From Roseibacillus sp. (GTDB taxonomy: Bacteria > Verrucomicrobiota > Verrucomicrobiia > Verrucomicrobiales > Akkermansiaceae): a stretch of 64,000 nucleotides of DNA. This document shows, piece by piece, positions 6,582 through 49,320 of the stretch (position 1 is the stretch's first letter; every line of letters begins with the position of its first letter). The stretch spans positions 96,001-160,000 of the forward strand of contig CBDEUM010000034.1 in the NCBI GenBank assembly GCA_965242925.1, given 5' to 3'. The notes under the pieces were generated by a model. The model ran no database searches. It was given only the letters and a program-made list of their open reading frames with translations, and was not told the origin of the DNA. The position numbers were made by a program, and so were the translations under genes.

Positions 6582-6947
6582 AACCAGGTATGGCCGGACA
6601 ACGGCAGGGATTGGGTTCCTGTGATGGCATGACGATGGGAAACAATCACCGTTTGGCACCCACCGAGATGTCGCCCGCCGGAAAGGGCGCGGGTCTACGC
6701 CCTTCCTTTCCTCGACCTTGTATTTTCCCAGATATTCAAGGCTCAATTATCATCCGGCCCCTGGCACAGGCGGGAGGCCAATTTATCGAGCTGGAATTTC
6801 AGTTAACGGCAGTCCATTCCATTGCTCCTCGCTGGCACGCCAATCGACCTCTTCAAGGGCACGGCAAGTGCGGGAAAAACCCAAATTAGGGGTTGAACCA
6901 GCGCGACCTAACCCCTTTAATGGTGTCCAAGACCCATTAACTCATTG

Positions 6948-7589
6948 ATGAAGACGCTCCTATCAGTCACCGCGGGGACTGCGCTCTTACTTACCAGCGC
7001 CCTCCAATCGCATGCCGCCATTGCCTACGGCATTGACGCCGGCACGGCTGGTACGCAAGCCTATAACGGAGCGCTCGGCAACGATTTTGACGTCGTCAGC
7101 ACGACCGGAATCTCGGTGACCCGCCTGGGCGTCTTTGATGACTCATCCGATGGTCTCAACTCCACGATTACGGTGGGAATTTTTGACCGGACCGACGGCT
7201 CTCTGGTTGGTTCCTCGATTGCATTCAGTGGTAACGATGGCTCGCTGGAAGGCGGGACCCGCTTCGCTACCCTGCTCTCACCCATCACTCTTCCAGCCGG
7301 ATTCCAAGGATCGGTCGTGGCCCAGGGCTATAATGCCGCTGAGCGAAACGGGAACGGCGGGACCGGATCCACGCCTGGAACGACCGACGACGGTGGCGGC
7401 GCCATCAGTTTTGTGGGTGGTTCGCGCTTTGGGCCAGGCGGGGTGTTTGCTTACCCCACCAGCGTCGATGGCGGGCCTGCTAACCGCTACCATGCCGGCA
7501 ACTTCGACTACGACGTCATTCCCGAGCCCTCCTCCCTGGCCCTTCTTCTTGGTGCCTTCGGATTCGTCGGCTTGCGTCGGCGTCGCTAA
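6948..7589 (+). CDS. PEP-CTERM sorting domain protein A
   Basis: Signal peptide; C-terminus IPEPSSLALLLGAFGFVGLRRRR (PEP, TM helix, Arg cluster). Confidence 0.93.
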   Translation: MKTLLSVTAGTALLLTSALQSHAAIAYGIDAGTAGTQAYNGALGNDFDVVSTTGISVTRLGVFDDSSDGLNSTITVGIFDRTDGSLVGSSIAFSGNDGSLEGGTRFATLLSPITLPAGFQGSVVAQGYNAAERNGNGGTGSTPGTTDDGGGAISFVGGSRFGPGGVFAYPTSVDGGPANRYHAGNFDYDVIPEPSSLALLLGAFGFVGLRRRR

Positions 7590-7625: not shown

Positions 7626-8255
7626 ATGAAACTCAACCTGGCCTTCTTCAGCTGCGCAGCGATTCTGCTCAGCGCATCATCCCAACTGAGTGCTGCCATC
7701 GCGCTCACCGTCCCCGCTGGAGCGACGTTCAATCAACACCACAATGGATTGCTGGGAATGGATTTCGATGTCACCGGGCCGGACGGGATCATCGTCTCAC
7801 GTCTGGGTGCCTTCGACTCGGGGCAGGATGGAATTCTCGGGACGATCAATGTGGGAATCGTGGACCGCACCACAGGGCTCGTGGTGGGAGAAACCCTTTC
7901 GTTCTCCGGGGACGCCGGCGACGTTGTGGACGGGAGCCGCTTTCTTAACCTCGCGACTCCTATCACGCTGGCCAATGGTTTTCAGGGCTCCATCACGGCG
8001 CAGGGCTACGGTCAGGAAGGCAACGGCAACGGGCAGGTCTCAACGATCGATGACGGCGGCGGTTTGATCAATTTTGTGGGAGGAGCTCGCTGGGGCGGAG
8101 ATGACCCCATCAGCCTGGCGCCGAATGCCGATGGCGGTCCGGCGAATCGCTACTTTGCCGGTACTTTTGATTATCGGGCAGTTCCGGAGCCGGGCTCCCT
8201 GGCCTTACTTCTTGGCGCGGTAGGGCTCTTGGGCCTTCGTCGTCGCCGGGCATAA
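7626..8255 (+). CDS. PEP-CTERM sorting domain protein B
   Basis: Signal peptide; C-terminus VPEPGSLALLLGAVGLLGLRRRRA. Confidence 0.93.
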   Translation: MKLNLAFFSCAAILLSASSQLSAAIALTVPAGATFNQHHNGLLGMDFDVTGPDGIIVSRLGAFDSGQDGILGTINVGIVDRTTGLVVGETLSFSGDAGDVVDGSRFLNLATPITLANGFQGSITAQGYGQEGNGNGQVSTIDDGGGLINFVGGARWGGDDPISLAPNADGGPANRYFAGTFDYRAVPEPGSLALLLGAVGLLGLRRRRA

Positions 8256-8391: not shown

Positions 8392-11034
8392 GTGAAACGG
8401 CGGGCGTCATTGAATGGGCAGGTGATCGCAGGGCAGCCGCCCCGGTTGCCACGTCCCGGGAGGCCTTCTCTGTTCCGGCAGGGGAAGCGTTCGTCCCCCG
8501 GACAATCTTCTCGTCTGCCGTCGAGAGATCCCGGAAGGGCGTGCGTTGTGGCCTTGTCCGCCGCGCTGCTCATGCTGGCGGGGTGCGGAGAAAAGGAGTC
8601 CGACCCATCCACCAAAGATTCCGAACAAGCTGATGCCGATCTCGCCGCTTCCCTGGTGGCCTCCGAAGAACTGATCCTCGCCCTGACCCCCCGCCTGAGG
8701 AAATTCGAGCCCAGCTTGTTCTCCTCCTCCAGCCTCTATTACGCACTGGAGAAGTCAGTTCACTCCGATACGCGCTACGCGAACTGGGGCGTAAGAAATA
8801 GAGAGTGGGCCACGCCCGCTTCGGCGCCGGCAGCCAACCCGCCGGCCCTCGACGACCTCGTGACTCCGCCGGAGGGAACGTTCCCGACCCTCTCCCGGCC
8901 TCGGTTGGCCATTGTGTCCGCACGTTTCCATGCCGCTCGGACTCAATTCCGAACGGAAATACAGTGTAGCGCCTCGGCCCCGGGAGTTTGGATTCGCTCC
9001 CGCCATACCGTTGCCTGGATCAAGAGCGGCCGTTCGCCTTCCGCGTGGCAGATCTCGGCCTGGCACCAGACCAGGCTCACCGTGTCACAAAGCCCCACCC
9101 CCCTCTTTGAGGAGGTCCTCGACAAGGCCGTTCCCGATCCGCAATCCTTGGCCGCGGCCCGCACCTCGCTGCACCAGAAAATCCTGGTGGATGGCTACTT
9201 TGGCGGAACCCGTCCCCCTCTTCCAAAAGGCTACAGCGACACCCGCTTCTTCGCGGACTCGACCAACATTCACCCCGCCCTCTCGGTGGTCGACGTCGAT
9301 GGCGACGGCCACGATGATCTCTACGTCTGCGTCCGCTGGGGCAGAAACCTGCTCCTCCGCAATAGGGGCGATGGCACGTTTGAGGAGTGCGCTGCCCGCT
9401 ACGGGCTCGACATCGACGGACGAAACACAGTGGCCCTTTTTGCCGATTTCGATAACGATGGCGATCCCGATCTGTTGCTCGGCCGCAGCCTGGAACGAAG
9501 CCTCTTTCTGGTGAATGTGGGGGGACGCTTTGAGCCTCATCCCGAGCCGGTTTCGAACGGTTCTCTGCCCTGGTTGGTCACCTCTGCCTCTGCCGCCGAT
9601 TTCAACAATGATGGTCTGTTGGATCTCTATATTTGCACTTACAGTCCGCTTGACATCAGTTCCCGGACCTCCGGGTTGCCGGACCGGAGCAGCCTGGAGT
9701 GGGCCCGGCGCTTCCTTCCCGCTGAGCAAGCCGCCGAAGTCGTCCGCCGGCGGGCTGGCGCCCACAGCTATCTCTCTCAGGTGGGCCCTCCCAACGTTCT
9801 CCTCCTGGGACGAGGAACGCACTTTGAGATCGCACCGGATGCCGCAACGCTCCTCGGCTACCGCAACAGCTTCCATGCGGCCTGGAGTGATTTCGATCAG
9901 GATGGCGACCAGGATCTCTACGTCGCCAACGACTTCGCTCCCGATCACTTCTTTCGAAACGAAGGGGCCGAGGGATTCAGCGAGGTTGCCAGAGAGATCG
10001 GGCTTGACGGCCTGGGCTTTGCGATGGGGGCGGCCTGGGGTGACTATGACGGCGATGGGTGGGACGATGTCTATGTCTCCAACATGTACTCGAAGGCGGG
10101 CCGCCGCATCACCGGCCGAATCCCCGGACTCGACCGCCGATTCTCCGCCATCTCGGGCGGCAACTTCCTCTACCGCAATCGCGGAGATGGAACCCTGGAG
10201 CGGGTTTCGGGAGCCGACGACAAACCCGTCCCCGTCCACGACGCCGGCTGGTCGTGGGGTGGACAATTCTGCGATTTCGATAACGACGGACACCTCGACC
10301 TTTATGTTTCCAGCGGCTTCTACACGCCTCCACCGGGGGAGGATATCGGAGTCGATTTGTGAAGTTGCCTTTGGCGCTCGGTCGTGCGCTCCGACAGTTC
10401 CCTGCCTCCGGATTTTCGCGCCGAAAAGACTTGGACGACCGATCCCAATACCGGGGCCCACGCGCCTGCCCTCAATCGAACGGATTTCTACAATGGTCCG
10501 GATTACCACCGGCATTCCTACAGCGGTTACGAGCACAACAAATTTTATCTGAATGTCGGCGGGAAGACCTTTTCAGACCTCTCTGGAGTCTCCGGGGTCG
10601 ACAACATCGCGGACGGTCGAAGCTGGTGTGCTCTCGACTACGACCAGGACGGCTGGACCGATATCGCGCTGGTCAACTCGAATCACCCCCTGCTGAATCT
10701 CTACCGAAATCGGATGGGCGAGCGGTCCAAGAACAATCATCTCAAAATTCGCCTGCTCGGCGGGGCGCGAGCTGGCGAGCGGTCCATGGCATGGAGCAAT
10801 CGTGACGCGGTGGGCGCCGTGGTAGAAATCACGACCGGCTCTCGCACGCTGCGGCGCGTTCGCCAACTGGGAGAAGGCTATGCCGCCCAGAACAGCGCCA
10901 CCCTGACGATCGGGATTGGTGAGGCGCTCGCTGCGGAATCACTTCGGGTCACCTGGCCTTCGGGGAAGACCACCAAGATCATGACCCCGATCCCGGCAGG
11001 AGTGGTTCTCACCCTCAAGGAACGTCCGGACTAA
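8392..11034 (+). CDS. CRTAC1/ASPIC-UnbV family FG-GAP repeat lipoprotein; candidate selenoprotein (in-frame TGA at 10360-10362); true start probably downstream of 8392
   Basis: Lipobox LAGC (Cys codon 8584) and many DxDxDGxxDL repeats. ORFs 8392..10362 and 10384..11034 share a frame and are separated only by the TGA and 7 sense codons. C-terminal ASPIC/UnbV motif GEGYAAQNS...VTWPSG. Confidence 0.85.
10363..10394 (+). promoter_or_regulatory. Candidate bacterial SECIS element
   Basis: GCGC(10374-77) pairs with GCGC(10386-89), with a C-G pair closing a GGUC loop at +18..+21 after the UGA; lower stem UUGG/CCGA is possible. The loop sequence and spacing resemble the E. coli fdhF SECIS. Confidence 0.65.
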
Positions 11035-11149: not shown

Positions 11150-14100
11150 ATGAAACTCAATCTGCCGTTGATCAGCTGCGCAGCGATTTTGCTCAGCGCA
11201 TCATCCCAACTGAGTGCTACCATCGCACTCACCGTCCCTGCTGGAGCGACGTTCAATCAACACCACAATGGATTGCTTGGAATGGATTTCGATGTCAACG
11301 GGCCGGACGGGATTATCGTCACACGTCTGGGCGCCTTCGACTCGGGACAGGATGGCATTCTCGGGACGATCATTGTAGGAATCGTGGACCGCGCCACCGG
11401 AAACGTGGTGGGAGAAACCCTTTCGTTCTCCGGGGACGCCGGCGACGTTGTGGACGGGAGCCGCTTTCTCGCCCTCACCACGCCCCTGGTATTACCCAAT
11501 GGTTTTCAGGGTTCCATCACCGCGCAGGGCTACGGTCAGGAAGGCAACGGCAACGGGCAGGTCTCAACGATCGATGACGGCGACGGCTTGATCACGTTCG
11601 TGGGAGGAGCCCGCTGGGGCGGAGATGACCCCCTGACCCTGGCGACGAATGCTGATGGCGGCCCGGCCAATCGCTACTTTGCCGGCACCTTTGAATTCCT
11701 GAGCGAGGATCTGAGCGAGGACACCGATGGGGATGGGTTGCCCAATGCCTGGGAAGAGACCTTCGGCTTGAATCCCAGTGATCCTGACGATGCCGATGAT
11801 GACGGCGACGGCGATGGTCTGAACAACACGGAGGAGTTTGAGAACAACACCGATCCCACCGAGCGGGACACAGATGGTGATGACCTGACCGATGGTGAAG
11901 AGGTCAACACTGCCATGACCGATCCAACCAAGAGGGATAGCGACGGCGATGGCCTGTGGGACAGCGTTGAAACCAATACTCGCTCCTTTACGAGTTGGAC
12001 CGGTGATTTGGAAGATCCAGACGTTCCCCAAACAGGGGACACCGGATCCGATCCCAATGATACCAATACCGACGATGACGGGTTTTCAGACGGCGCGGAA
12101 GTCGCCGCGGGCTTTGACCCGAATGATCCGAACAGCGGTCCGCCGTCATCCCAACTGAGTGCTGCCATCGCACTCACCGTCCCCGCTGGAGCGACGTTCA
12201 ATCAACACCACAATGGATTGCTGGGAATGGATTTCGATGTCACCGGGCCGGACGGGATCATCGTCACACGTCTGGGCGCCTTCGACTCGGGGCAGGATGG
12301 AATTCTCGGGACGATCAATGTAGGAATCGTGGACCGCGCCACCGGAAACGTGGTGGGAGAAACCCTTTCGTTCTCCGGGGACGCCGGCGACGTTGTGGAC
12401 GGCAGCCGCTTTCTCGCCCTCACCACGCCCCTCATATTACCCAATGGTTTTCAGGGTTCCATCACGGCGCAGGGCTACGGTCAGGAAGGCAACGGCAACG
12501 GGCAGGTCTCAACGATCGATGACGGCAATGGCTTGATCACGTTCGTGGGAGGAGCTCGCTGGGGCGGAGATGACCCCCTGACCCTGGCGCCGAATGCTGA
12601 TGGCGGCCCGGCGAATCGCTATTTTGCCGGCACCTTTGAATTCCTGAGCGAGGACACCGATGGGGATGGGTTGCCTGATGCCTGGGAAGAGACCTTCGGC
12701 TTGAATCCCAGTGATCCTGACGATGCCGATGATGACGGCGACGGCGATGGTCTGAACAACACGGAGGAGTTTGAGAACAACACCGATCCCACCGAGCGGG
12801 ACACGGATGGTGATGACCTGACCGATGGTGAAGAGGTCAACACTGCCATGACCGATCCAACCAGGAGGGATAGCGACGGCGATGGCCTGTGGGACAGCGT
12901 TGAAACCAATACTCGCTCCTTCACGAGTTGGACCGGTGATTTGGAAGATCCAGATGTTCCCCAAACAGGGGATACCGGATCCGATCCCAATGATACCAAT
13001 ACCGACGATGACGGGTTTTCAGACGGCGAGGAGGTCGCGGCAGGCTTTGACCCGAATGATCCGGACAGCGGTCCGTCGCTCTCCTTCCAAGGCATGCTGG
13101 CGATCGACTACCTGGAGCCAGGAGTCGGAACGCAGGAATTTGCGGAAGGACTGGGACACGACTTCCTCGTGATCGGCGAGGCGATCGAAGTCACCGCGCT
13201 TGGCGTATTCGACAGTGGGGCGGATGGTCTCAACCGGGAGCTCACCTCCGAGCTCTGGGTGCGGGACGACAACAACTTGGGGACGTCGTTGCTGGCATCC
13301 CTCTCCTTCGTCCCGGGGGCACCCGGGCTGCTGCACCATTCGAACCGGATCAAATCTCTCCCCATCCCACTCGTCCTCGAGCCGGGCGCCTACACAATTG
13401 TCGGTCGGGGCTATGGGGCGGGTGAGCCGAACGGGAATACCGGTGGTCCTGGATCAGACCTCAAGCCCATCAATGATGGAGGCGGACGGATCGAGTTCGT
13501 GGGCGGTGCCCGTTGGGGGGGCGGTGGGATTGGTGGCGCCGTTGGATTCCCACAAAATGTTGATGGCGGACCGCCGGTGCGCTATGCGGCGGGGACCTTT
13601 GCCTTCCGGACTGAGCCGCCGCCTAAATTGTTCTGGCGAATTTCCTCGAGCGGGGACGATCTCATCTTCGAGTGGGAGAGCAGATTAGGGAAGGTCTACG
13701 ACATCTTAAGCAACGACGATCTCTCCGATCACCCGGCAGCAGGCTGGCCCCTCTTCCGCGGAGACATTGCCGGGACCCCTCCCTTGAATGTCGAGACCTC
13801 CCTTCGCCCCCCCGACGAAAAACGCTACTTCGTGCTGGTCGAGAGGGACGGTCCGCCTCTTTTCGAAGATGATTTTGAGACTGACAAAGGGTGGACCGCG
13901 ATCGTGAACGATGCCAACGGCAATACCAACTGGGAGCGCGGCACCCCCGGCGGCAGCACTGGACCGCTCACCGGCGCCGATGGCTCCGCCAATGCCTGGT
14001 CCACCAACCAGGGAGACTACGGACCGGATTCCGACATCGCCCTGCGCTCGCCGCTTATTGATTTGACCGGTATTCCGACCGCCGAATTGTCCCTCGACGC

Positions 14101-14353
14101 CTTCAGGGACGCCGATGGCTTCGCCGACACCGCCTCGGTGCGCTTTCTGGACGCAACCGGCCTCACCCAGTTGGGGTTCGAGCACCCCATCGACATGACT
14201 GTCTTCGACGGTGACTGGACCAACCTGGTCATCCCGGTGGCACCAGAAGCCCTCGGGGAGAGCATCATCATCGAAATCAATTTTATCAGCGACAACAGCG
14301 AGGACACCTTCAGCGGGCTCTCCATTGACAACGTCAGCGTGAGTGCCGAGTAG
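11150..14353 (+). CDS. Secreted protein: two tandem (beta domain + TSP3-like repeats) units, a third domain copy and a C-terminal beta-sandwich; paralog of 4302..6581
   Basis: Signal peptide almost identical to that of PEP-CTERM B; DTDGDGLP repeats; C-terminal ~160 aa closely match the 4302 gene. Confidence 0.9.
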   Translation: MKLNLPLISCAAILLSASSQLSATIALTVPAGATFNQHHNGLLGMDFDVNGPDGIIVTRLGAFDSGQDGILGTIIVGIVDRATGNVVGETLSFSGDAGDVVDGSRFLALTTPLVLPNGFQGSITAQGYGQEGNGNGQVSTIDDGDGLITFVGGARWGGDDPLTLATNADGGPANRYFAGTFEFLSEDLSEDTDGDGLPNAWEETFGLNPSDPDDADDDGDGDGLNNTEEFENNTDPTERDTDGDDLTDGEEVNTAMTDPTKRDSDGDGLWDSVETNTRSFTSWTGDLEDPDVPQTGDTGSDPNDTNTDDDGFSDGAEVAAGFDPNDPNSGPPSSQLSAAIALTVPAGATFNQHHNGLLGMDFDVTGPDGIIVTRLGAFDSGQDGILGTINVGIVDRATGNVVGETLSFSGDAGDVVDGSRFLALTTPLILPNGFQGSITAQGYGQEGNGNGQVSTIDDGNGLITFVGGARWGGDDPLTLAPNADGGPANRYFAGTFEFLSEDTDGDGLPDAWEETFGLNPSDPDDADDDGDGDGLNNTEEFENNTDPTERDTDGDDLTDGEEVNTAMTDPTRRDSDGDGLWDSVETNTRSFTSWTGDLEDPDVPQTGDTGSDPNDTNTDDDGFSDGEEVAAGFDPNDPDSGPSLSFQGMLAIDYLEPGVGTQEFAEGLGHDFLVIGEAIEVTALGVFDSGADGLNRELTSELWVRDDNNLGTSLLASLSFVPGAPGLLHHSNRIKSLPIPLVLEPGAYTIVGRGYGAGEPNGNTGGPGSDLKPINDGGGRIEFVGGARWGGGGIGGAVGFPQNVDGGPPVRYAAGTFAFRTEPPPKLFWRISSSGDDLIFEWESRLGKVYDILSNDDLSDHPAAGWPLFRGDIAGTPPLNVETSLRPPDEKRYFVLVERDGPPLFEDDFETDKGWTAIVNDANGNTNWERGTPGGSTGPLTGADGSANAWSTNQGDYGPDSDIALRSPLIDLTGIPTAELSLDAFRDADGFADTASVRFLDATGLTQLGFEHPIDMTVFDGDWTNLVIPVAPEALGESIIIEINFISDNSEDTFSGLSIDNVSVSAE
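11201..13075 (+). repeat. Near-identical intragenic tandem duplication, period 945 bp
   Basis: tcatcccaactgagtgc starts at both 11201 and 12146. The copies differ by scattered substitutions and a 12-nt indel (LSEDLSED versus LSED). Confidence 0.92.
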
Positions 14354-43728: not shown

Positions 43729-44279
43729 GTACTTGGGGGCCTTTTAGATGCTCCCCGTGCAGGGCGGCAAGTTCAACCTGTACAAGAAAAGAGGCAGCTT
43801 CCTCAAGGGAGTGAGATCGCTAAAGTCTTTAGTCTAGTATTTGTATTTTTTGCAGAACCTTGGATCTCACTCCCTCGATTGACTGCCTGTTGTTGATACA
43901 ACCGCACCATCGGCCGGCGATTTTCAAATTTCTTCAATTAATCCCGAATGAGGCTCCAAAGTGAGCATTGCACTTGAAGCGAATTGGCCAGTCCGCTTGT
44001 CAATAGCCGTCTGGGGGCCCGTGAAAGTTCGCGGCGGTTCGTAATCGGTCAGGCACTTCGGCAAGGCCTGCTGGAGCACGTGTAAGCCCCCTCGGCGAGC
44101 TTGTTGAATTGACTGGGAGCGGTTGACCGAATTTCCCCTGATCCATTCTATGCGTAGAATACATTCCGCGAATCATAGTAGTGATGACATGTTGACGATT
44201 CAGCACCCCGCATCTACATGTCATAATGAGAGGCAGTTCGGCCCGTGTTGGAATAGCAGAAAACTCCCGAAACCGCCGC

Positions 44280-47150
44280 ATGTTGCCATTCCAGGTCCTG
44301 CTATGGGCTGCGATTCTAGGACCTGCTAGCACATCCCTGGGAAATAACGCTCCTGAAGCGACGGCAACCACCACTTCCGCTACTGCCACCTCCACTCCGA
44401 ATGGCCCCGGGGAGGAGCTTTCCTTCAACCTGAGATGGGAGCAAACGGGGACGGCGGAGGGCATCATCACCGGCAGAATCACCTTCCCGGCAGACACGGT
44501 GGGCAACCCGCCCCTCTTGACAGATCCCTCCACCGCAGTGGCCGGGAGCACTCTGGTTCTCAGACGCGAGGGACAGACCTTCATCTACCAGGATGCCGGG
44601 GTTGTTTTCAGTGCTGTCCAACAACTTGATTTCTCTCACGAGATCGTTACCCAGTCCGGCTTCTCTGACTTCAACATCTTCACCGGGGACGGTGAGTTCA
44701 CGGGACTCAACCCGGGGGTTCTGGGCAGCTCAGATCGTATTTATCACCTGGTCAGCATGGCCCCGGGGATCTCAGGGCAACTGGTGGCAACCGATCCCGA
44801 CCCCGATTCCTCCCTGGTCTACAGTCTGGACGAACCGATTGCCGGGTTGGCCATCAACCCGGACGGCAGTTACACCTTCGACCCCTCGGGCCCCGTCCAC
44901 GTGTCTCTGGGGGAGGGGGAAGTCCTGGCGGTGATTGCCGACTGGACAGTCACGGACAACGAGGGAGCGTCGGCCTCGAGCACCCTCACTATCACCGTGA
45001 ACGGGGCCAACGATGAACCGGTGGCCAATGCTGCCACCGCCACTGATCCTGTCAGCGGGCAGTTGGCAGCCAGCGACGTGGATGACAATGCGATGCTCAC
45101 CTTTGCCCTGGATGCCCCGGTGCCGGGCTTGGTCGTCAACGAAGACGGCAGTTACACCTTTGACTCCTCGGATCCCGCCTATGCTGAACTGGTAACGGGT
45201 GAATCGATTGAGGTGATCGCCAACTGGATCGTCACCGATAACGAGGGGGCAACCGCCCCCAGCACCCTCACCATCACGGTGAATGGGTTCAATGATACTC
45301 CTGAAGCGACGGCAACCACCACTTCCGCTACTGCCACCTCCACTCCGAATGGCCCCGGGGAGGAGCTTTCCTTCAACCTGAGATGGGAGCAAACGGGGAC
45401 GGCGGAGGGCATCATCACCGGCAGAATCACCTTCCCGGCAGACACGGTGGGCAACCCGCCCCTCTTGACAGATCCCTCCACCGCAGTGGCCGGGAGCACT
45501 CTGGTTCTCAGACGCGAGGGACAGACCTTCATCTACCAGGATGCCGGGGTTGTTTTCAGTGCTGTCCAACAACTTGATTTCTCTCACGAGATCGTTACCC
45601 AGTCCGGCTTCTCTGACTTCAACATCTTCACCGGGGACGGTGAGTTCACGGGACTCAACCCGGGGGTTCTGGGCAGCTCAGATCGTATTTATCACCTGGT
45701 CAGCATGGCCCCGGGGATCTCAGGGCAACTGGTGGCAACCGATCCCGACCCCGATTCCTCCCTGGTCTACAGTCTGGACGAACCGATTGCCGGGTTGGCC
45801 ATCAACCCGGACGGCAGTTACACCTTCGACCCCTCGGGCCCCGTCCACGTGTCTCTGGGGGAGGGGGAAGTCCTGGCGGTGATTGCCGACTGGACAGTCA
45901 CGGACAACGAGGGAGCGTCGGCCTCGAGCACCCTCACTATCACCGTGAACGGGGCCAACGATGAACCGGTGGCCAATGCTGCCACCGCCACTGATCCTGT
46001 CAGCGGGCAGTTGGCAGCCAGCGACGTGGATGACAATGCGATGCTCACCTTTGCCCTGGATGCCCCGGTGCCGGGCTTGGTCGTCAACGAAGACGGCAGT
46101 TACACCTTTGACTCCTCGGATCCCGCCTATGCTGAACTGGTAACGGGTGAATCGATTGAGGTGATCGCCAACTGGATCGTCACCGATAACGAGGGGGCAA
46201 CCGCCCCCAGCACCCTCACCATCACGGTGAATGGGTTCAATGATACTCCTGAAGCGACGGCAACCACCACTTCCGCTACTGCCACCTCCACTCCGAATGG
46301 CCCCGGGGAGGAGCTTTCCTTCAACCTGAGATGGGAGCAAACGGGGACGGCGGAGGGCATCATCACCGGCAGAATCACCTTCCCGGCAGACACGGTGGGC
46401 AACCCGCCCCTCTTGACAGATCCCTCCACCGCAGTGGCCGGGAGCACTCTGGTTCTCAGACGCGAGGGACAGACCTTCATCTACCAGGATGCCGGGGTTG
46501 TTTTCAGTGCTGTCCAACAACTTGATTTCTCTCACGAGATCGTTACCCAGTCCGGCTTCTCTGACTTCAACATCTTCACCGGGGACGGTGAGTTCACGGG
46601 ACTCAACCCGGGGGTTCTGGGCAGCTCAGATCGTATTTATCACCTGGTCAGCATGGCCCCGGGGATCTCAGGGCAACTGGTGGCAACCGATCCCGACCCC
46701 GATTCCTCCCTGGTCTACAGTCTGGACGAACCGATTGCCGGGTTGGCCATCAACCCGGACGGCAGTTACACCTTCGACCCCTCGGGCCCCGTCCACGTGT
46801 CTCTGGGGGAGGGGGAAGTCCTGGCGGTGATTGCCGACTGGACAGTCACGGACAACGAGGGAGCGTCGGCCTCGAGCACCCTCACTATCACGGTGACAGG
46901 CAGCGCTCCGCCTCCTCTTGAGATCATCAATCTTACGGACAACATCACTTCGGAAGGATTCAACTCCTTGACGATTACCTTCTCGTCTCTCCTCGGAAGA
47001 GCATATGCTGCGGAGCGCTCGAGGGATCTCATTCACTGGAACCACCTGCGTGATATTATCGGTGAGGAGAGCACCACTGACTTCACCGACGATGATCCTA
47101 TCCATGATGGCCAGCCCGTATTCTACCGGGTGAAGGAGGTCAGCCCCTAG
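44280..47150 (+). CDS. VCBS/Ig-like repeat adhesin
   Basis: Signal peptide; repeats SGQLxAxDxD...GLxxNxDGSYTFD...LTITVNGxNDxP; C-terminal SRDLIHW...FYRV domain. Confidence 0.88.
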   Translation: MLPFQVLLWAAILGPASTSLGNNAPEATATTTSATATSTPNGPGEELSFNLRWEQTGTAEGIITGRITFPADTVGNPPLLTDPSTAVAGSTLVLRREGQTFIYQDAGVVFSAVQQLDFSHEIVTQSGFSDFNIFTGDGEFTGLNPGVLGSSDRIYHLVSMAPGISGQLVATDPDPDSSLVYSLDEPIAGLAINPDGSYTFDPSGPVHVSLGEGEVLAVIADWTVTDNEGASASSTLTITVNGANDEPVANAATATDPVSGQLAASDVDDNAMLTFALDAPVPGLVVNEDGSYTFDSSDPAYAELVTGESIEVIANWIVTDNEGATAPSTLTITVNGFNDTPEATATTTSATATSTPNGPGEELSFNLRWEQTGTAEGIITGRITFPADTVGNPPLLTDPSTAVAGSTLVLRREGQTFIYQDAGVVFSAVQQLDFSHEIVTQSGFSDFNIFTGDGEFTGLNPGVLGSSDRIYHLVSMAPGISGQLVATDPDPDSSLVYSLDEPIAGLAINPDGSYTFDPSGPVHVSLGEGEVLAVIADWTVTDNEGASASSTLTITVNGANDEPVANAATATDPVSGQLAASDVDDNAMLTFALDAPVPGLVVNEDGSYTFDSSDPAYAELVTGESIEVIANWIVTDNEGATAPSTLTITVNGFNDTPEATATTTSATATSTPNGPGEELSFNLRWEQTGTAEGIITGRITFPADTVGNPPLLTDPSTAVAGSTLVLRREGQTFIYQDAGVVFSAVQQLDFSHEIVTQSGFSDFNIFTGDGEFTGLNPGVLGSSDRIYHLVSMAPGISGQLVATDPDPDSSLVYSLDEPIAGLAINPDGSYTFDPSGPVHVSLGEGEVLAVIADWTVTDNEGASASSTLTITVTGSAPPPLEIINLTDNITSEGFNSLTITFSSLLGRAYAAERSRDLIHWNHLRDIIGEESTTDFTDDDPIHDGQPVFYRVKEVSP
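44351..46891 (+). repeat. 948-bp tandem repeat, about 2.7 copies, apparently identical
   Basis: tcctgaagcgacggc starts at 44351, 45299 and 46247. Even the off-frame ORFs recur with identical translations at a 948-nt offset. Confidence 0.95.
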
Positions 47151-47159
47151 CTCGCAGAT

Positions 47160-49100
47160 TCAGGAGACCGCGGTGCGGTAGTCACCGTTACGGCGGGTTT
47201 TTCCCTCGGCATCCATGCGTTCGAGAAGAGGCATGATGACCCGTCGACTGGTAGCAAGATGCTGACGCAGGTCACTGGCGGTGGCCTGACCCTGCGACTG
47301 GAGGAAGTCGAGAATTTGTTCACACGCCTGATCATAGCTCTGGGTCAGGATGATGACCTTGTCGGTCAACTCAGTGACAATTCCACCTCGAATAAGGAAG
47401 GAGAGGGCGCGTTGCGAGGATGTCCCGGTGGCCAGTTCAGCCCGACCCGGAGGGCTCAGCGGTTCCCGTCGCAAAGTTTGCTGGATCTTCTCGGCGGCGG
47501 CCCGGATGTCATCGGCAAGTGCTGGAGAAAAGGCCTCTTCCGCCAGAATCGTTCCCTGCTGAATAATGCCCCGCTCCCCAAGGTGTTCCACCATAAGATC
47601 AAAGAGGCCAGGATCGGGCAATCCATCCTGAACGCTTTGCCGGAGATCCTCCAGGTGGAGTCCAGGCAGATCGGCATTCTTCCTGTGGTAATCCGCCACC
47701 AAGCCCGCAGCCCGGGTGAGCAACCCCTCCCACCATGTCGCCGCGGCCAGATGACTGCCAAGTTCACAGGCGACCCCTTCGGCGAGAAGTTTCTCTACGA
47801 CCTCATCGATTTCCCCGTCAGAAAACCTCAGGCGCAGTTTCAGTCCGGCAAGTTCAACCAGGGAATCACGCTCCAGGGCAGAAGTCAGGAGAACCGACAA
47901 ATCGTCTGGAGCCTCCGCCCGCTGCCGCAGGAATCGCACTTGTTCCTCGTTGCGCAATCGCCGCCGACTGGCATCGGCGTCGAGGACCAGCGCTCCCCCC
48001 ACGGTGGCCTCTCCCGACCAGTCGCGAAGGACGACATGATCTCCCACCATCATGAAGCGCGGTTCATCGAGTCGCAGTTGTGCCAGCATGGTCTGGCCGG
48101 CGGAGATGCTCCTGCCCTCGATAAAATAGATGCGCGCCCCGGTGGATCCTGATCCGTGGTGTACCCGTACGCGGCGTCCCGACGGAAGGTCACGCCTGGT
48201 GGCCAATTGACCCGGTATTTCCCGGCTCAGTCGCCGCATGCTGATGTTGACTGTATCCGCCGGCGTCCCCGCCTGTGATCCAGTGAGGAGGCCGCCCCGA
48301 CCCACGCCGGAGCGATCCCTGGCGGAGACCTGTAACTCAGGGAGATTCAGCGCGGTACGCATGCCCGGATGAGCGACCTCCACCGATTGACTGTCATTCT
48401 GGATCGTGCGGACGTGCGCCGCCAGTCCATCCGGTTGCAGCGATACGTCGTCGCCCACGACAAGAGTACCCCCGGAAAGAGTTCCCGTGACCACGGTGCC
48501 GATCCCTTTCACAGAAAACGCCCGGTCCACCGGTAGGAGGGGCTTGCCAAAATCGGCCACCGGGGGAGCCGAAACCAGCTGGGAACACAGCGCCGTCCGC
48601 AACTGTTCGATGCCCTCGCCCGTAAGAGAGGAAACCGGAACGATGGGAGCGTTCTCGAGTATGGTGTCCCGGAGGCTGTCCCTCACAAATTCAATGGAGA
48701 AGTCAAGATCCTCAGCGAGATCCGACTTCGTGAGGGCCACTACGCAACGCTCGACCCCGAGGAATGTCAGGATGTGCAGGTGTTCCTCCGACTGAGGCAT
48801 CCAACCGTCATCCGCTGCAACCACAAAGAGGGCTATATCCATTCCTCCCACACCCGCCACCATGTTATTAACGAAGTCGGCGTGACCAGGAACATCCACG
48901 ATTCCCAGTTCGAACACCGTTTCTGCCTCGGAATCGTCCCGCAGGGAAAGGTGAGCAAAGCCCAGTTCAATGGTCACTCCACGCCTCTGCTCCTCGGGGA
49001 GCCGGTCAGGGTCAGTCCCGGTCAAGGCTTTCACGAGAGACGACTTCCCATGATCGATATGACCAGCCGTCCCGAGAATATAGCGCCGCTCGTTACTCAT
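47160..49100 (-). CDS. selB: Selenocysteine-specific elongation factor SelB
   Basis: GTAGHIDHGKSSLVKALTG, DRLPEEQRRGVTIELGF, DVPGH, MPQSEEHL; C-terminal winged-helix SRRVIMPLLE...TRRNGDYR. Confidence 0.96.
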   Translation of the reverse strand: MSNERRYILGTAGHIDHGKSSLVKALTGTDPDRLPEEQRRGVTIELGFAHLSLRDDSEAETVFELGIVDVPGHADFVNNMVAGVGGMDIALFVVAADDGWMPQSEEHLHILTFLGVERCVVALTKSDLAEDLDFSIEFVRDSLRDTILENAPIVPVSSLTGEGIEQLRTALCSQLVSAPPVADFGKPLLPVDRAFSVKGIGTVVTGTLSGGTLVVGDDVSLQPDGLAAHVRTIQNDSQSVEVAHPGMRTALNLPELQVSARDRSGVGRGGLLTGSQAGTPADTVNISMRRLSREIPGQLATRRDLPSGRRVRVHHGSGSTGARIYFIEGRSISAGQTMLAQLRLDEPRFMMVGDHVVLRDWSGEATVGGALVLDADASRRRLRNEEQVRFLRQRAEAPDDLSVLLTSALERDSLVELAGLKLRLRFSDGEIDEVVEKLLAEGVACELGSHLAAATWWEGLLTRAAGLVADYHRKNADLPGLHLEDLRQSVQDGLPDPGLFDLMVEHLGERGIIQQGTILAEEAFSPALADDIRAAAEKIQQTLRREPLSPPGRAELATGTSSQRALSFLIRGGIVTELTDKVIILTQSYDQACEQILDFLQSQGQATASDLRQHLATSRRVIMPLLERMDAEGKTRRNGDYRTAVS

Positions 49101-49320
49101 CGGAATGGTTAACTGGTCCAACGATCCGGGCTTTCTCGAAATCGTAGGGAGTCAATTCGAGATGGACACGACTTCTCATGGCGAGTTCCTCCGCCAGTCC
49201 TGCAAGGCGACCGGGCAGGTGTCCGATCACCAGTTTCCCGTTTGGCAGTTCCACACGAAAGACGCGACCCGGCAGGACTTCGCAGATCTCACCGGTGGTC
49301 ACGATAGGAGGTTCGGACAT
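49093..49320 (-). CDS. infA: Divergent translation initiation factor IF-1-like protein
   Basis: GEICEVLPGRVFRVELPNG...GH...G...ELTPYDFEKARI matches the IF-1 S1 fold; overlaps the selB start by 8 nt. Confidence 0.82.
   Translation of the reverse strand: MSEPPIVTTGEICEVLPGRVFRVELPNGKLVIGHLPGRLAGLAEELAMRSRVHLELTPYDFEKARIVGPVNHSDE

Follow-up and report, generated by a model that had tools for sequence, protein, structure and literature searches.

Two open reading frames (ORFs) annotated next to each other in the genome of Roseibacillus sp. lie in one frame, separated by a single TGA codon. They belong to a stretch of 64,000 nucleotides (assembly GCA_965242925.1, contig CBDEUM010000034.1, positions 96,001 to 160,000 of the forward strand), referred to here as the window, and coordinates given without a contig label are positions in it. 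Translation of 8392-11034 on the plus strand yields a single frame with one internal stop, the TGA at 10360-10362, reading ...EDIGVDL*SCLWRSVVR... across the junction and ending with a TAA at 11032-11034; the earlier note on this DNA had joined the two ORFs in the same way. Judged from the sequence, the UGA is very probably a selenocysteine (Sec) codon in an exported protein related to CRTAC1 (cartilage acidic protein 1). The features on which this view depends, among them a hairpin resembling a selenocysteine insertion sequence (SECIS), are the following:

8392-11034, plus strand: read-through gene for a CRTAC1-like FG-GAP / ASPIC-UnbV protein, 880 codons when counted from 8392, where the first in-frame start lies
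8548-8586, plus strand: candidate lipoprotein signal peptide with lipobox L-A-G-C, Cys codon at 8584-8586, identified by eye
9289-10359, plus strand: FG-GAP propeller blades 5' of the TGA (Pfam FG-GAP_3, E 2.8e-39; FG-GAP, E 1e-22)
10360-10362, plus strand: in-frame TGA, putative selenocysteine codon, at the same column across the family loci
10366-10368, plus strand: Cys codon at +2 (U-S-C motif), candidate resolving cysteine by the +2 Cys pattern of tail-less Sec forms
10373-10390, plus strand: SECIS-like hairpin, GGUC loop at 10380-10383, that is +18 to +21 after the TGA
10807-11001, plus strand: ASPIC/UnbV domain, wholly 3' of the TGA (Pfam PF07593, E 1.1e-14, residues 149-213 of the downstream part)
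11032-11034, plus strand: true stop TAA, from the frame translation
47160-49121, minus strand: selB, the Sec-specific elongation factor, 653 residues (TIGR00475, 287.5 bits against a cut-off of 242)

The joined product matches three Pfam families above their cut-offs (PF13517, PF01839 and PF07593), with FG-GAP repeats followed by UnbV_ASPIC. The part 3' of the TGA holds another FG-GAP_3 repeat in addition to the ASPIC/UnbV domain, in agreement with the earlier proposal that this half supplies the last propeller blade together with the C-terminal domain. An AlphaFold2 (AF2) model of the joined sequence (649 residues; predicted local distance difference test, pLDDT, 91.1; predicted template modelling score, pTM, 0.93) forms one domain assembly, in which Sec is residue 426, placed in the first turn of helix 425-435 just past the last upstream blade. 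The best Foldseek match of this model is murine CRTAC1 (9etn_A, E 9.8e-28; template modelling scores TMq 0.62 and, with normalisation to the target, TMt 0.73), followed by the FG-GAP propellers of integrins and lectins. The sequence search of the PDB matched 9etn alone (E 3.5e-12), with the Sec region outside the alignment. Three database products of 604-613 residues (P0020, P0038 and P0082) stop at ...GVDL.

The protein had been described beforehand as an exported CRTAC1/ASPIC-UnbV lipoprotein, and the family assignment is upheld by both Pfam and Foldseek. Its candidate lipoprotein signal is an L-A-G-C recognised by eye, within an N-terminus that reads LLMLAG-C, and the start codon is uncertain, being either 8392 or a GTG at 8548 just before the signal sequence; a start at 8548 would leave the n-region of the signal without positive charge. 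Similar L-x-x-C ends were seen by eye in eight of the ten other paralogues of this genome, the remaining two (L113 and L121) having none in the ORFs as delimited. On comparative evidence it is highly probable that the two annotated ORFs are one gene, whose predicted product has about 830-880 residues and a lipoprotein-type N-terminal signal.

The interrupted arrangement is repeated many times within the same genome. By tblastn against the whole assembly (G000), a stop falls at the same aligned column in 13 loci, within the motif D-L-*-S-x-x-W-R-x-V-V. Of the 13, 11 are distinct and two, on other contigs, repeat another member exactly or nearly: the C17 locus duplicates C12:51079 and the C37 locus nearly duplicates C28, both of which may reflect assembly redundancy. 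Most of the further copies are 1160-1365 residues long and bear thioredoxin-like and TPR tails. The twelve CRTAC1-like genes with TGA other than the focal one (loci L113-L122) are found at:

G000:C12:51079, C12:89967, C13:132387, C13:146637, C17:49805 and C20:16543: first six further TGA genes
G000:C22:99699, C28:4493, C29:2749, C30:153375, C30:361056 and C37:896: remaining six

The TGA is an inherited feature of this family and reflects neither a sequencing error nor a decaying gene. Family matches were obtained in 23 of 41 related genomes. Among the matches listed, all those reaching across the column have one TGA and no more; the sole match scored as having none is a fragment confined to sequence 3' of the column. 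Direct inspection found TGA at the column in all 20 loci fetched from relatives. A cross-phylum scan of species-representative genomes gave it in 26 of 80 loci, distributed over Verrucomicrobiales/Akkermansiaceae, Limisphaerales, Pirellulaceae, Mariniblastus, other Planctomycetota and a Nannocystaceae genome. Dozens of genes across phyla, with identities down to about 25-30%, have TGA in the same column, and the invariant family motif is D-[L]-U-S-x-x-W. The stop is TGA in all 49 distinct sequences; TAA and TAG, either of which had been named in advance as speaking against recoding, do not occur. A strict DNA pattern for the site, applied to 401 genomes across the phylum, gave 11 sites in G000 and one in each of three others, and the same pattern read backwards as a control gave no match across the phylum sample. 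Since the pattern was found in only 4 of 401 genomes, the TGA form seems to be lineage-restricted within the sampled Verrucomicrobiota.

Independent sequencing data agree with the assembly. The stretch is present in sequencing runs of 14 sea-water studies, and four public runs mapped to it show no other letter at 10360-10362; among them is a contig from an independent study that spans 10330-10760 and carries the TGA. Runs from RNA libraries cover small shares of the stretch, and X15 gave short pieces, apparently from relatives. Listed variant sites fall at third codon positions in 16 of 19 cases upstream and 17 of 19 cases downstream of the TGA (hand count), and amino-acid identity to orthologues is similar on the two sides, the downstream value following the upstream one (76% downstream versus 68% upstream for L016; 67.5% versus 62% for L035).

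The machinery for Sec decoding is largely present. The selB ORF lies about 37 kb downstream of the read-through gene, and its match to TIGR00475 above the cut-off confirms the presence of selB in the window; the genome also holds selD and a tRNA-Sec (anticodon tca). Among 41 genomes of the order, SelB scores above the cut-off in 21 of the 23 that have the family, and 14 of the 18 without the family have no SelB. In other lineages all 7 TGA-bearing genomes contain SelB, as does one of three genomes with non-TGA forms; it is missing from the remaining two. The earlier expectation that the TGA occurs only together with Sec machinery therefore holds for 21 of 23 genomes in the order and all seven elsewhere, with two incomplete genomes as exceptions.

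The genomic position of the sel genes was also recorded in a complete related genome (G033:C1:4458538-4482575). There, one CRTAC1-like TGA gene lies on each side of selB (4466932-4468140) and tRNA-Sec (4469579-4469671), at a distance of no more than about 12 kb. From this layout, the CRTAC1-like TGA family may be linked with the sel locus.

On comparative grounds, the RNA just 3' of the UGA is constrained beyond coding needs. In the focal gene, GGTC at 10380-10383 sits between GCGC at 10374-10377 and GCGC at 10386-10389, and the coordinates bear out the hairpin as first described, with its GGUC loop at +18 to +21. The pairs are 10373-10390 (G.U), 10374-10389, 10375-10388, 10376-10387, 10377-10386 and 10379-10384, with a U.U mismatch at 10378-10385. 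Family hairpins fall into two registers. In class 1 (W-R-T/S-V-V-R, including the focal gene) a GGUC tetraloop caps a stem of at most 6-7 pairs, and class 2 (W-R-Q-V-V-S) has a stem GGCGNC/GNCGCC around the loop A-GGUC-GU. Among 19 class-2 sequences, pair 18-28 is realised as GU (8), AU (7), GC (2), CG (1) and UG (1), and in none of the 19 is it unpaired; its covariation score is 0.181 versus 0.086 in shuffled data, and 2 of 500 shuffles score as high. The covarying bases are the synonymous third base of an Arg codon and the first base of a Ser, Ala or Pro codon. The class-1 stem (24 sequences) hardly varies, and its one double-sided change, from C-G to A-U, costs two amino-acid replacements. 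Moreover, loop codons are fixed at synonymous sites (Val +7 is GTC in 46/48, Val +8 is GTG in 43/45 and Gln +6 is CAG in 21/21), unlike the Val codons at -7 and -3 of the same sequences, which are mixed. The conservation of the hairpin, named at the outset as a sign that would support recoding, is thus seen in pairing kept through changes in both arms and in loop codons frozen at synonymous sites. A different loop was observed in the TGA form (L057) of the Nannocystaceae genome, a myxobacterial one that has SelB: its motif is DF-U-TFLWRQLAAH and its hairpin has the loop AGUUG instead of GGUC.

Two other genes of the same genome serve as controls for the form that a SECIS takes here:

G000:C22:63568 (L123): formate dehydrogenase alpha gene (FdhA) with UGA, in the canonical context ...CSRA-U-HAPTV...
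G000:C14:573883 (L124): selD with its own in-frame UGA and a GGUCC-loop hairpin, further downstream

The FdhA hairpin has a 6-bp stem and a GGUCU loop, with GGUC at +19 to +22 after the UGA, and the site matches Rfam SECIS_3 with 51.3 bits (E 8e-10), below the gathering score of 63. An Rfam scan of the SelD site gave no match. As FdhA, SelD and the focal family all show one, three unrelated gene families of this genome possess a GGUC-loop hairpin after an in-frame UGA.

As far as sequence comparison can tell, the recoding mechanism is the ordinary bacterial one. During translation SelB, loaded with Sec-tRNA(Sec), would bind the hairpin (10373-10390, with its GGUC loop 18-21 nt beyond the UGA), and selenocysteine would be inserted at 10360-10362. 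The expected product is one CRTAC1-like propeller and ASPIC/UnbV protein with a lipoprotein-type signal.

Several observations weigh against recoding in this form. Searches of the assembly with TIGR00474 and PF03841 did not find selA. Because 11 of the 12 same-genus genomes searched have selA, and because the assembly is 89.9% complete (metagenome-type, 42 contigs, 3.2% contamination), we read the missing gene as a possible assembly gap; of the selA, selC and selD that the earlier note looked to, tRNA-Sec and selD are present, and the failure to find selA is taken as non-refuting. In two genomes with the family, G013 and G015, no SelB match reached the cut-off; neither genome is complete, and a tRNA-Sec was found in G013. 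The minimum-free-energy fold of 10350-10430 alone is no better than that of shuffled sequences (z +1.54), so the weight of the focal hairpin comes from comparison across sequences. Within class 1 the covariation is thin, amounting to the single double change, a level reached by 24 of 500 shuffles. The U.U of the focal gene and its closest relatives stands where most sequences have A-U, and 7 of 24 class-1 members are unpaired at this position. Finally, an Rfam scan of 10200-10600 gave no match at E<=10, a result that carries little weight since the SelD site of the same genome is also unmatched.

Three other explanations of the TGA have to be set against Sec insertion. If the UGA terminates translation, the downstream part might be made by re-initiation, for example at the GUG 21 nt on, and the hairpin would serve the coupling of a conserved split gene. 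Gene callers do annotate two ORFs, the database has products ending at the TGA, and the GTG at 10384, which opens an ORF of 216 residues, is an almost invariant codon (43/45). However, the downstream piece has no signal peptide and would remain cytoplasmic, apart from the exported N-terminal piece, and yet the structural model is one assembly of both. Nor would re-initiation fit a stop that is TGA in 49 of 49 distinct sequences, TGA forms that track SelB, or a hairpin resembling the FdhA and SelD SECIS elements of the same genome, and we regard it as very improbable. Reading of the UGA as a standard amino acid (Trp, Cys, Gly or Arg), through near-cognate decoding or a reassigned code and without SelB, has in its favour that a hairpin can stimulate read-through and that UGA-to-Trp reassignment is reported in some Verrucomicrobiota (PMC13462651). 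Yet TGA is an ordinary stop here, ending 7 of 10 paralogues, and no properly aligned homologue has Trp at the column; moreover, the phyletic link with SelB and the SECIS-like loop would both be coincidences. This explanation accordingly appears highly implausible to us. A lone internal stop in an otherwise intact gene is also the usual look of a fresh pseudogene, and the genome is an incomplete metagenome-type assembly with 42 contigs and 3.2% contamination. That the TGA arose in sequencing or assembly, or through a mutation that lately disabled the gene, is refuted by the same codon in the same column of dozens of genes across phyla and by its recovery from independent runs. Purifying selection downstream of the TGA also speaks against such an origin, the probability of which is close to nil.

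Selenocysteine is replaced by a range of residues in related proteins. The closest full-length database homologues have Glu at the column in 112 of 120 cases, Asp in two and Ser in one, and the rest are three products ending at the TGA and two that do not match the column pattern. Homologues of the long class-2 paralogues carry Asn, Ser, Ala, Gly, Glu or Asp, with Cys in five. Over 248 rows the column contains E 113, U 47, N 25, S 24, A 18, D 6, G 6, C 5, Y 2, Q 1 and R 1. The clean alternation between Cys and Sec anticipated for this column is not borne out, as the non-Sec homologues have mostly Glu, Asn, Ser or Ala there. Variable residues had also been listed beforehand as a sign against recoding, and they were indeed found, yet recoding stands on the TGA column, the hairpin and the SelB pattern. 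What this variability does say is that the fold can dispense with the residue at the Sec column. In a midpoint-rooted FastTree tree, the Glu clade lies inside the Sec forms as (L019,(L018,(Glu clade))), with local supports of 99-100, and the single Ser form is sister to a Sec form; this quick tree with its midpoint root suggests that Sec was lost rather than gained.

The Sec forms differ in what accompanies the residue. In this genome there are two U-S-C copies, the focal gene and one at C13, and nothing follows the UnbV domain in either. The remaining paralogues, which have U-S-F/N/V, run on into an AhpC-TSA/Redoxin-like domain, most of them with TPR repeats, and among these tail-bearing paralogues CxxC is at the expected place in eight and CxxS in one. 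Across the family, Cys at +2 occurs in 14/20 tail-less Sec forms, 0/26 tail-bearing Sec forms and 1/201 non-Sec forms. The U-S-C motif highlighted earlier is therefore present in the focal gene but is not conserved in the family, Cys +2 being confined to tail-less subfamilies. Among tail-bearing forms, CxxC is found in 25/26 with Sec, 2/5 with Cys and 8/161 with other residues. The Sec lies in a propeller insert outside any thioredoxin fold, and the thioredoxin-like domain, where present, is separate and C-terminal; the focal gene has no such domain.

TGA family members with differing open-frame lengths were also observed side by side on the same contig, at G008:C50, G003:C66, G002:C27, G009:C183, G006:C525 and G037:C57. 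At a guess, such neighbours may be a tail-less and a tail-bearing form working as a pair.

The pattern of tails and Cys +2, together with Sec at a helix N-terminus, fits a redox-active selenol whose recycling would fall either to the Cys close by or to the thioredoxin-like domain of the tail, and we put the chances that the Sec is a redox-active residue at roughly even. In the tail-less subfamily, the Cys of U-S-C would resolve the oxidised selenium as a selenenylsulfide, and in the longer paralogues the fused thioredoxin-like domain with its CxxC would do that job. A more far-reaching version, towards which we are inclined to be somewhat sceptical, takes Sec to be the ancestral catalytic residue of a large surface-exposed, selenium-dependent redox family built on a CRTAC1-type propeller. 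In this version oxidised Sec would be recycled by the fused thioredoxin-like CxxC, or by Cys +2 in tail-less forms, and lineages losing Sec decoding would have swapped in Glu, Ser, Asn or Ala, after which the CxxC decayed.

Redox chemistry is, for its part, called into question by six tail-less Sec forms in which position +2 is not Cys. On supported branches there are 4 independent pairs for Sec/CxxC and 2 for Cys +2/tail; none is in the opposite direction, and the sign test is not significant in either case (p 0.25 and 0.5, respectively). Cys occupies the column in only 5 of 201 non-Sec rows, where Glu, Asn, Ser and Ala dominate, and this is atypical for a catalytic Sec. An alternative that concerns function only, and is compatible with recoding, is that Sec is inserted as a metal ligand or structural residue at a site held by Glu or Asp in non-Sec forms. 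Glu is the commonest non-Sec residue (113 of 248 rows) and, like selenolate, an anionic ligand. The FG-GAP fold of the propeller binds Ca and contains many invariant Asp, and few independent contrasts lie behind the redox correlation. The class-2 column, however, also contains Asn, Ser, Ala or Gly, which are not ligands, and a metal site gives no obvious reason for the near-perfect co-occurrence of Sec with either a CxxC tail or Cys +2. We thus consider a metal-binding or structural Sec rather unlikely.

The surroundings of the gene in the window were also surveyed. Two small proteins with PEP-CTERM sorting motifs are encoded directly 5' of the read-through gene (6945-7589 and 7626-8255, plus strand). 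The downstream neighbour (11150-14353, plus strand) encodes 1067 residues with bacterial TSP3 (Ca-binding) repeats, and shows a weak, below-cut-off match to the Ca-binding domain of binary-toxin B components. An ORF of 974 residues (44226-47150, plus strand) converges on selB.

The question whether such proteins had been reported before, left open by the earlier note, can be answered in part: they have appeared as candidates only. Kim et al. 2016 (PLoS One, PMC4807772) list four of them in Table S9 as 'selenoprotein gene candidates', each annotated as two genes split by UGA, with bSECISearch positive for 3/4 and the residue of the closest match at the Sec position given as G; the main-text passages available from that paper do not discuss the four. 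The family described here has the same domain make-up and the same two-gene annotation split by UGA as the candidates of PMC4807772. It goes beyond them in the family-wide column, the covariation of the hairpin, the same-genome SECIS controls, the co-occurrence with SelB, the 13-copy expansion and the pattern of Cys +2 versus thioredoxin tail. Full-text literature queries on selenoprotein or selenocysteine with ASPIC, FG-GAP or CRTAC1 returned only irrelevant papers. By term search, FG-GAP, ASPIC, UnbV, CRTAC and propeller are absent from the main text of PMC13188914, PMC12013277 and PMC9312934, and FG-GAP, ASPIC, UnbV, CRTAC1 and VCBS are absent from four supplements of PMC12013277 (deep-Sep). 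Literature on the CRTAC1 crystal structure or propeller offered nothing useful on function.

The focal gene is one of many copies in a widespread, almost undocumented bacterial selenoprotein family with a large paralogue expansion. Many selenoprotein finders use the logic of Sec/Cys pairs, and because the non-Sec relatives carry Glu, Asn, Ser or Ala, the family falls outside this logic, which may explain why it was overlooked. Standard gene callers split these genes, with the consequence that the size and architecture of the family are misrecorded in protein collections. If Sec is indeed encoded, most selenoproteins identified in this marine bacterium come from one family, known from three phyla or more, whose 13 copies (11 distinct) stand beside FdhA and SelD. 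On the more far-reaching version of the redox reading, the family would dominate the selenoproteome of marine Verrucomicrobiales and Pirellulales, and bacteria abundant in the ocean would carry out selenium chemistry at their cell surface. The pattern of Cys +2 versus thioredoxin tail moreover provides a testable handle on the biochemistry of CRTAC1-like proteins.

Three known systems invite comparison. The archetype of SelB/SECIS-dependent UGA recoding is fdhF of E. coli. Systems of this kind and the focal family have in common the in-frame UGA, a short G+C-rich hairpin within the coding sequence with GGUC about 18-22 nt on, and the presence of selB, selD and tRNA-Sec in the genome. The host, however, would here be an exported propeller lipoprotein instead of a cytoplasmic oxidoreductase or one exported by twin-arginine translocation (Tat). 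The focal hairpin also differs by its U.U below the loop-closing pair and by having no Rfam SECIS match, and the non-Sec homologues of the focal family are mostly no Cys forms.

With CRTAC1 (9etn) the family shares the FG-GAP propeller and the UnbV/ASPIC domain, whereas the sequence alignment leaves out the Sec-bearing stretch and many bacterial members add thioredoxin-like and TPR tails; to our knowledge, mammalian CRTAC1 is not a selenoprotein. In thiol/selenol oxidoreductases of the thioredoxin fold (CxxC, CxxU, UxxC), the Sec or Cys lies at the N-terminus of a helix. The Sec of the focal family differs from these in its position within a propeller insert and in its UxC spacing, but it resembles them in being placed at the first turn of a helix, accompanied by a nearby Cys (U-S-C) or by a fused AhpC/TSA-Redoxin-like domain with CxxC.

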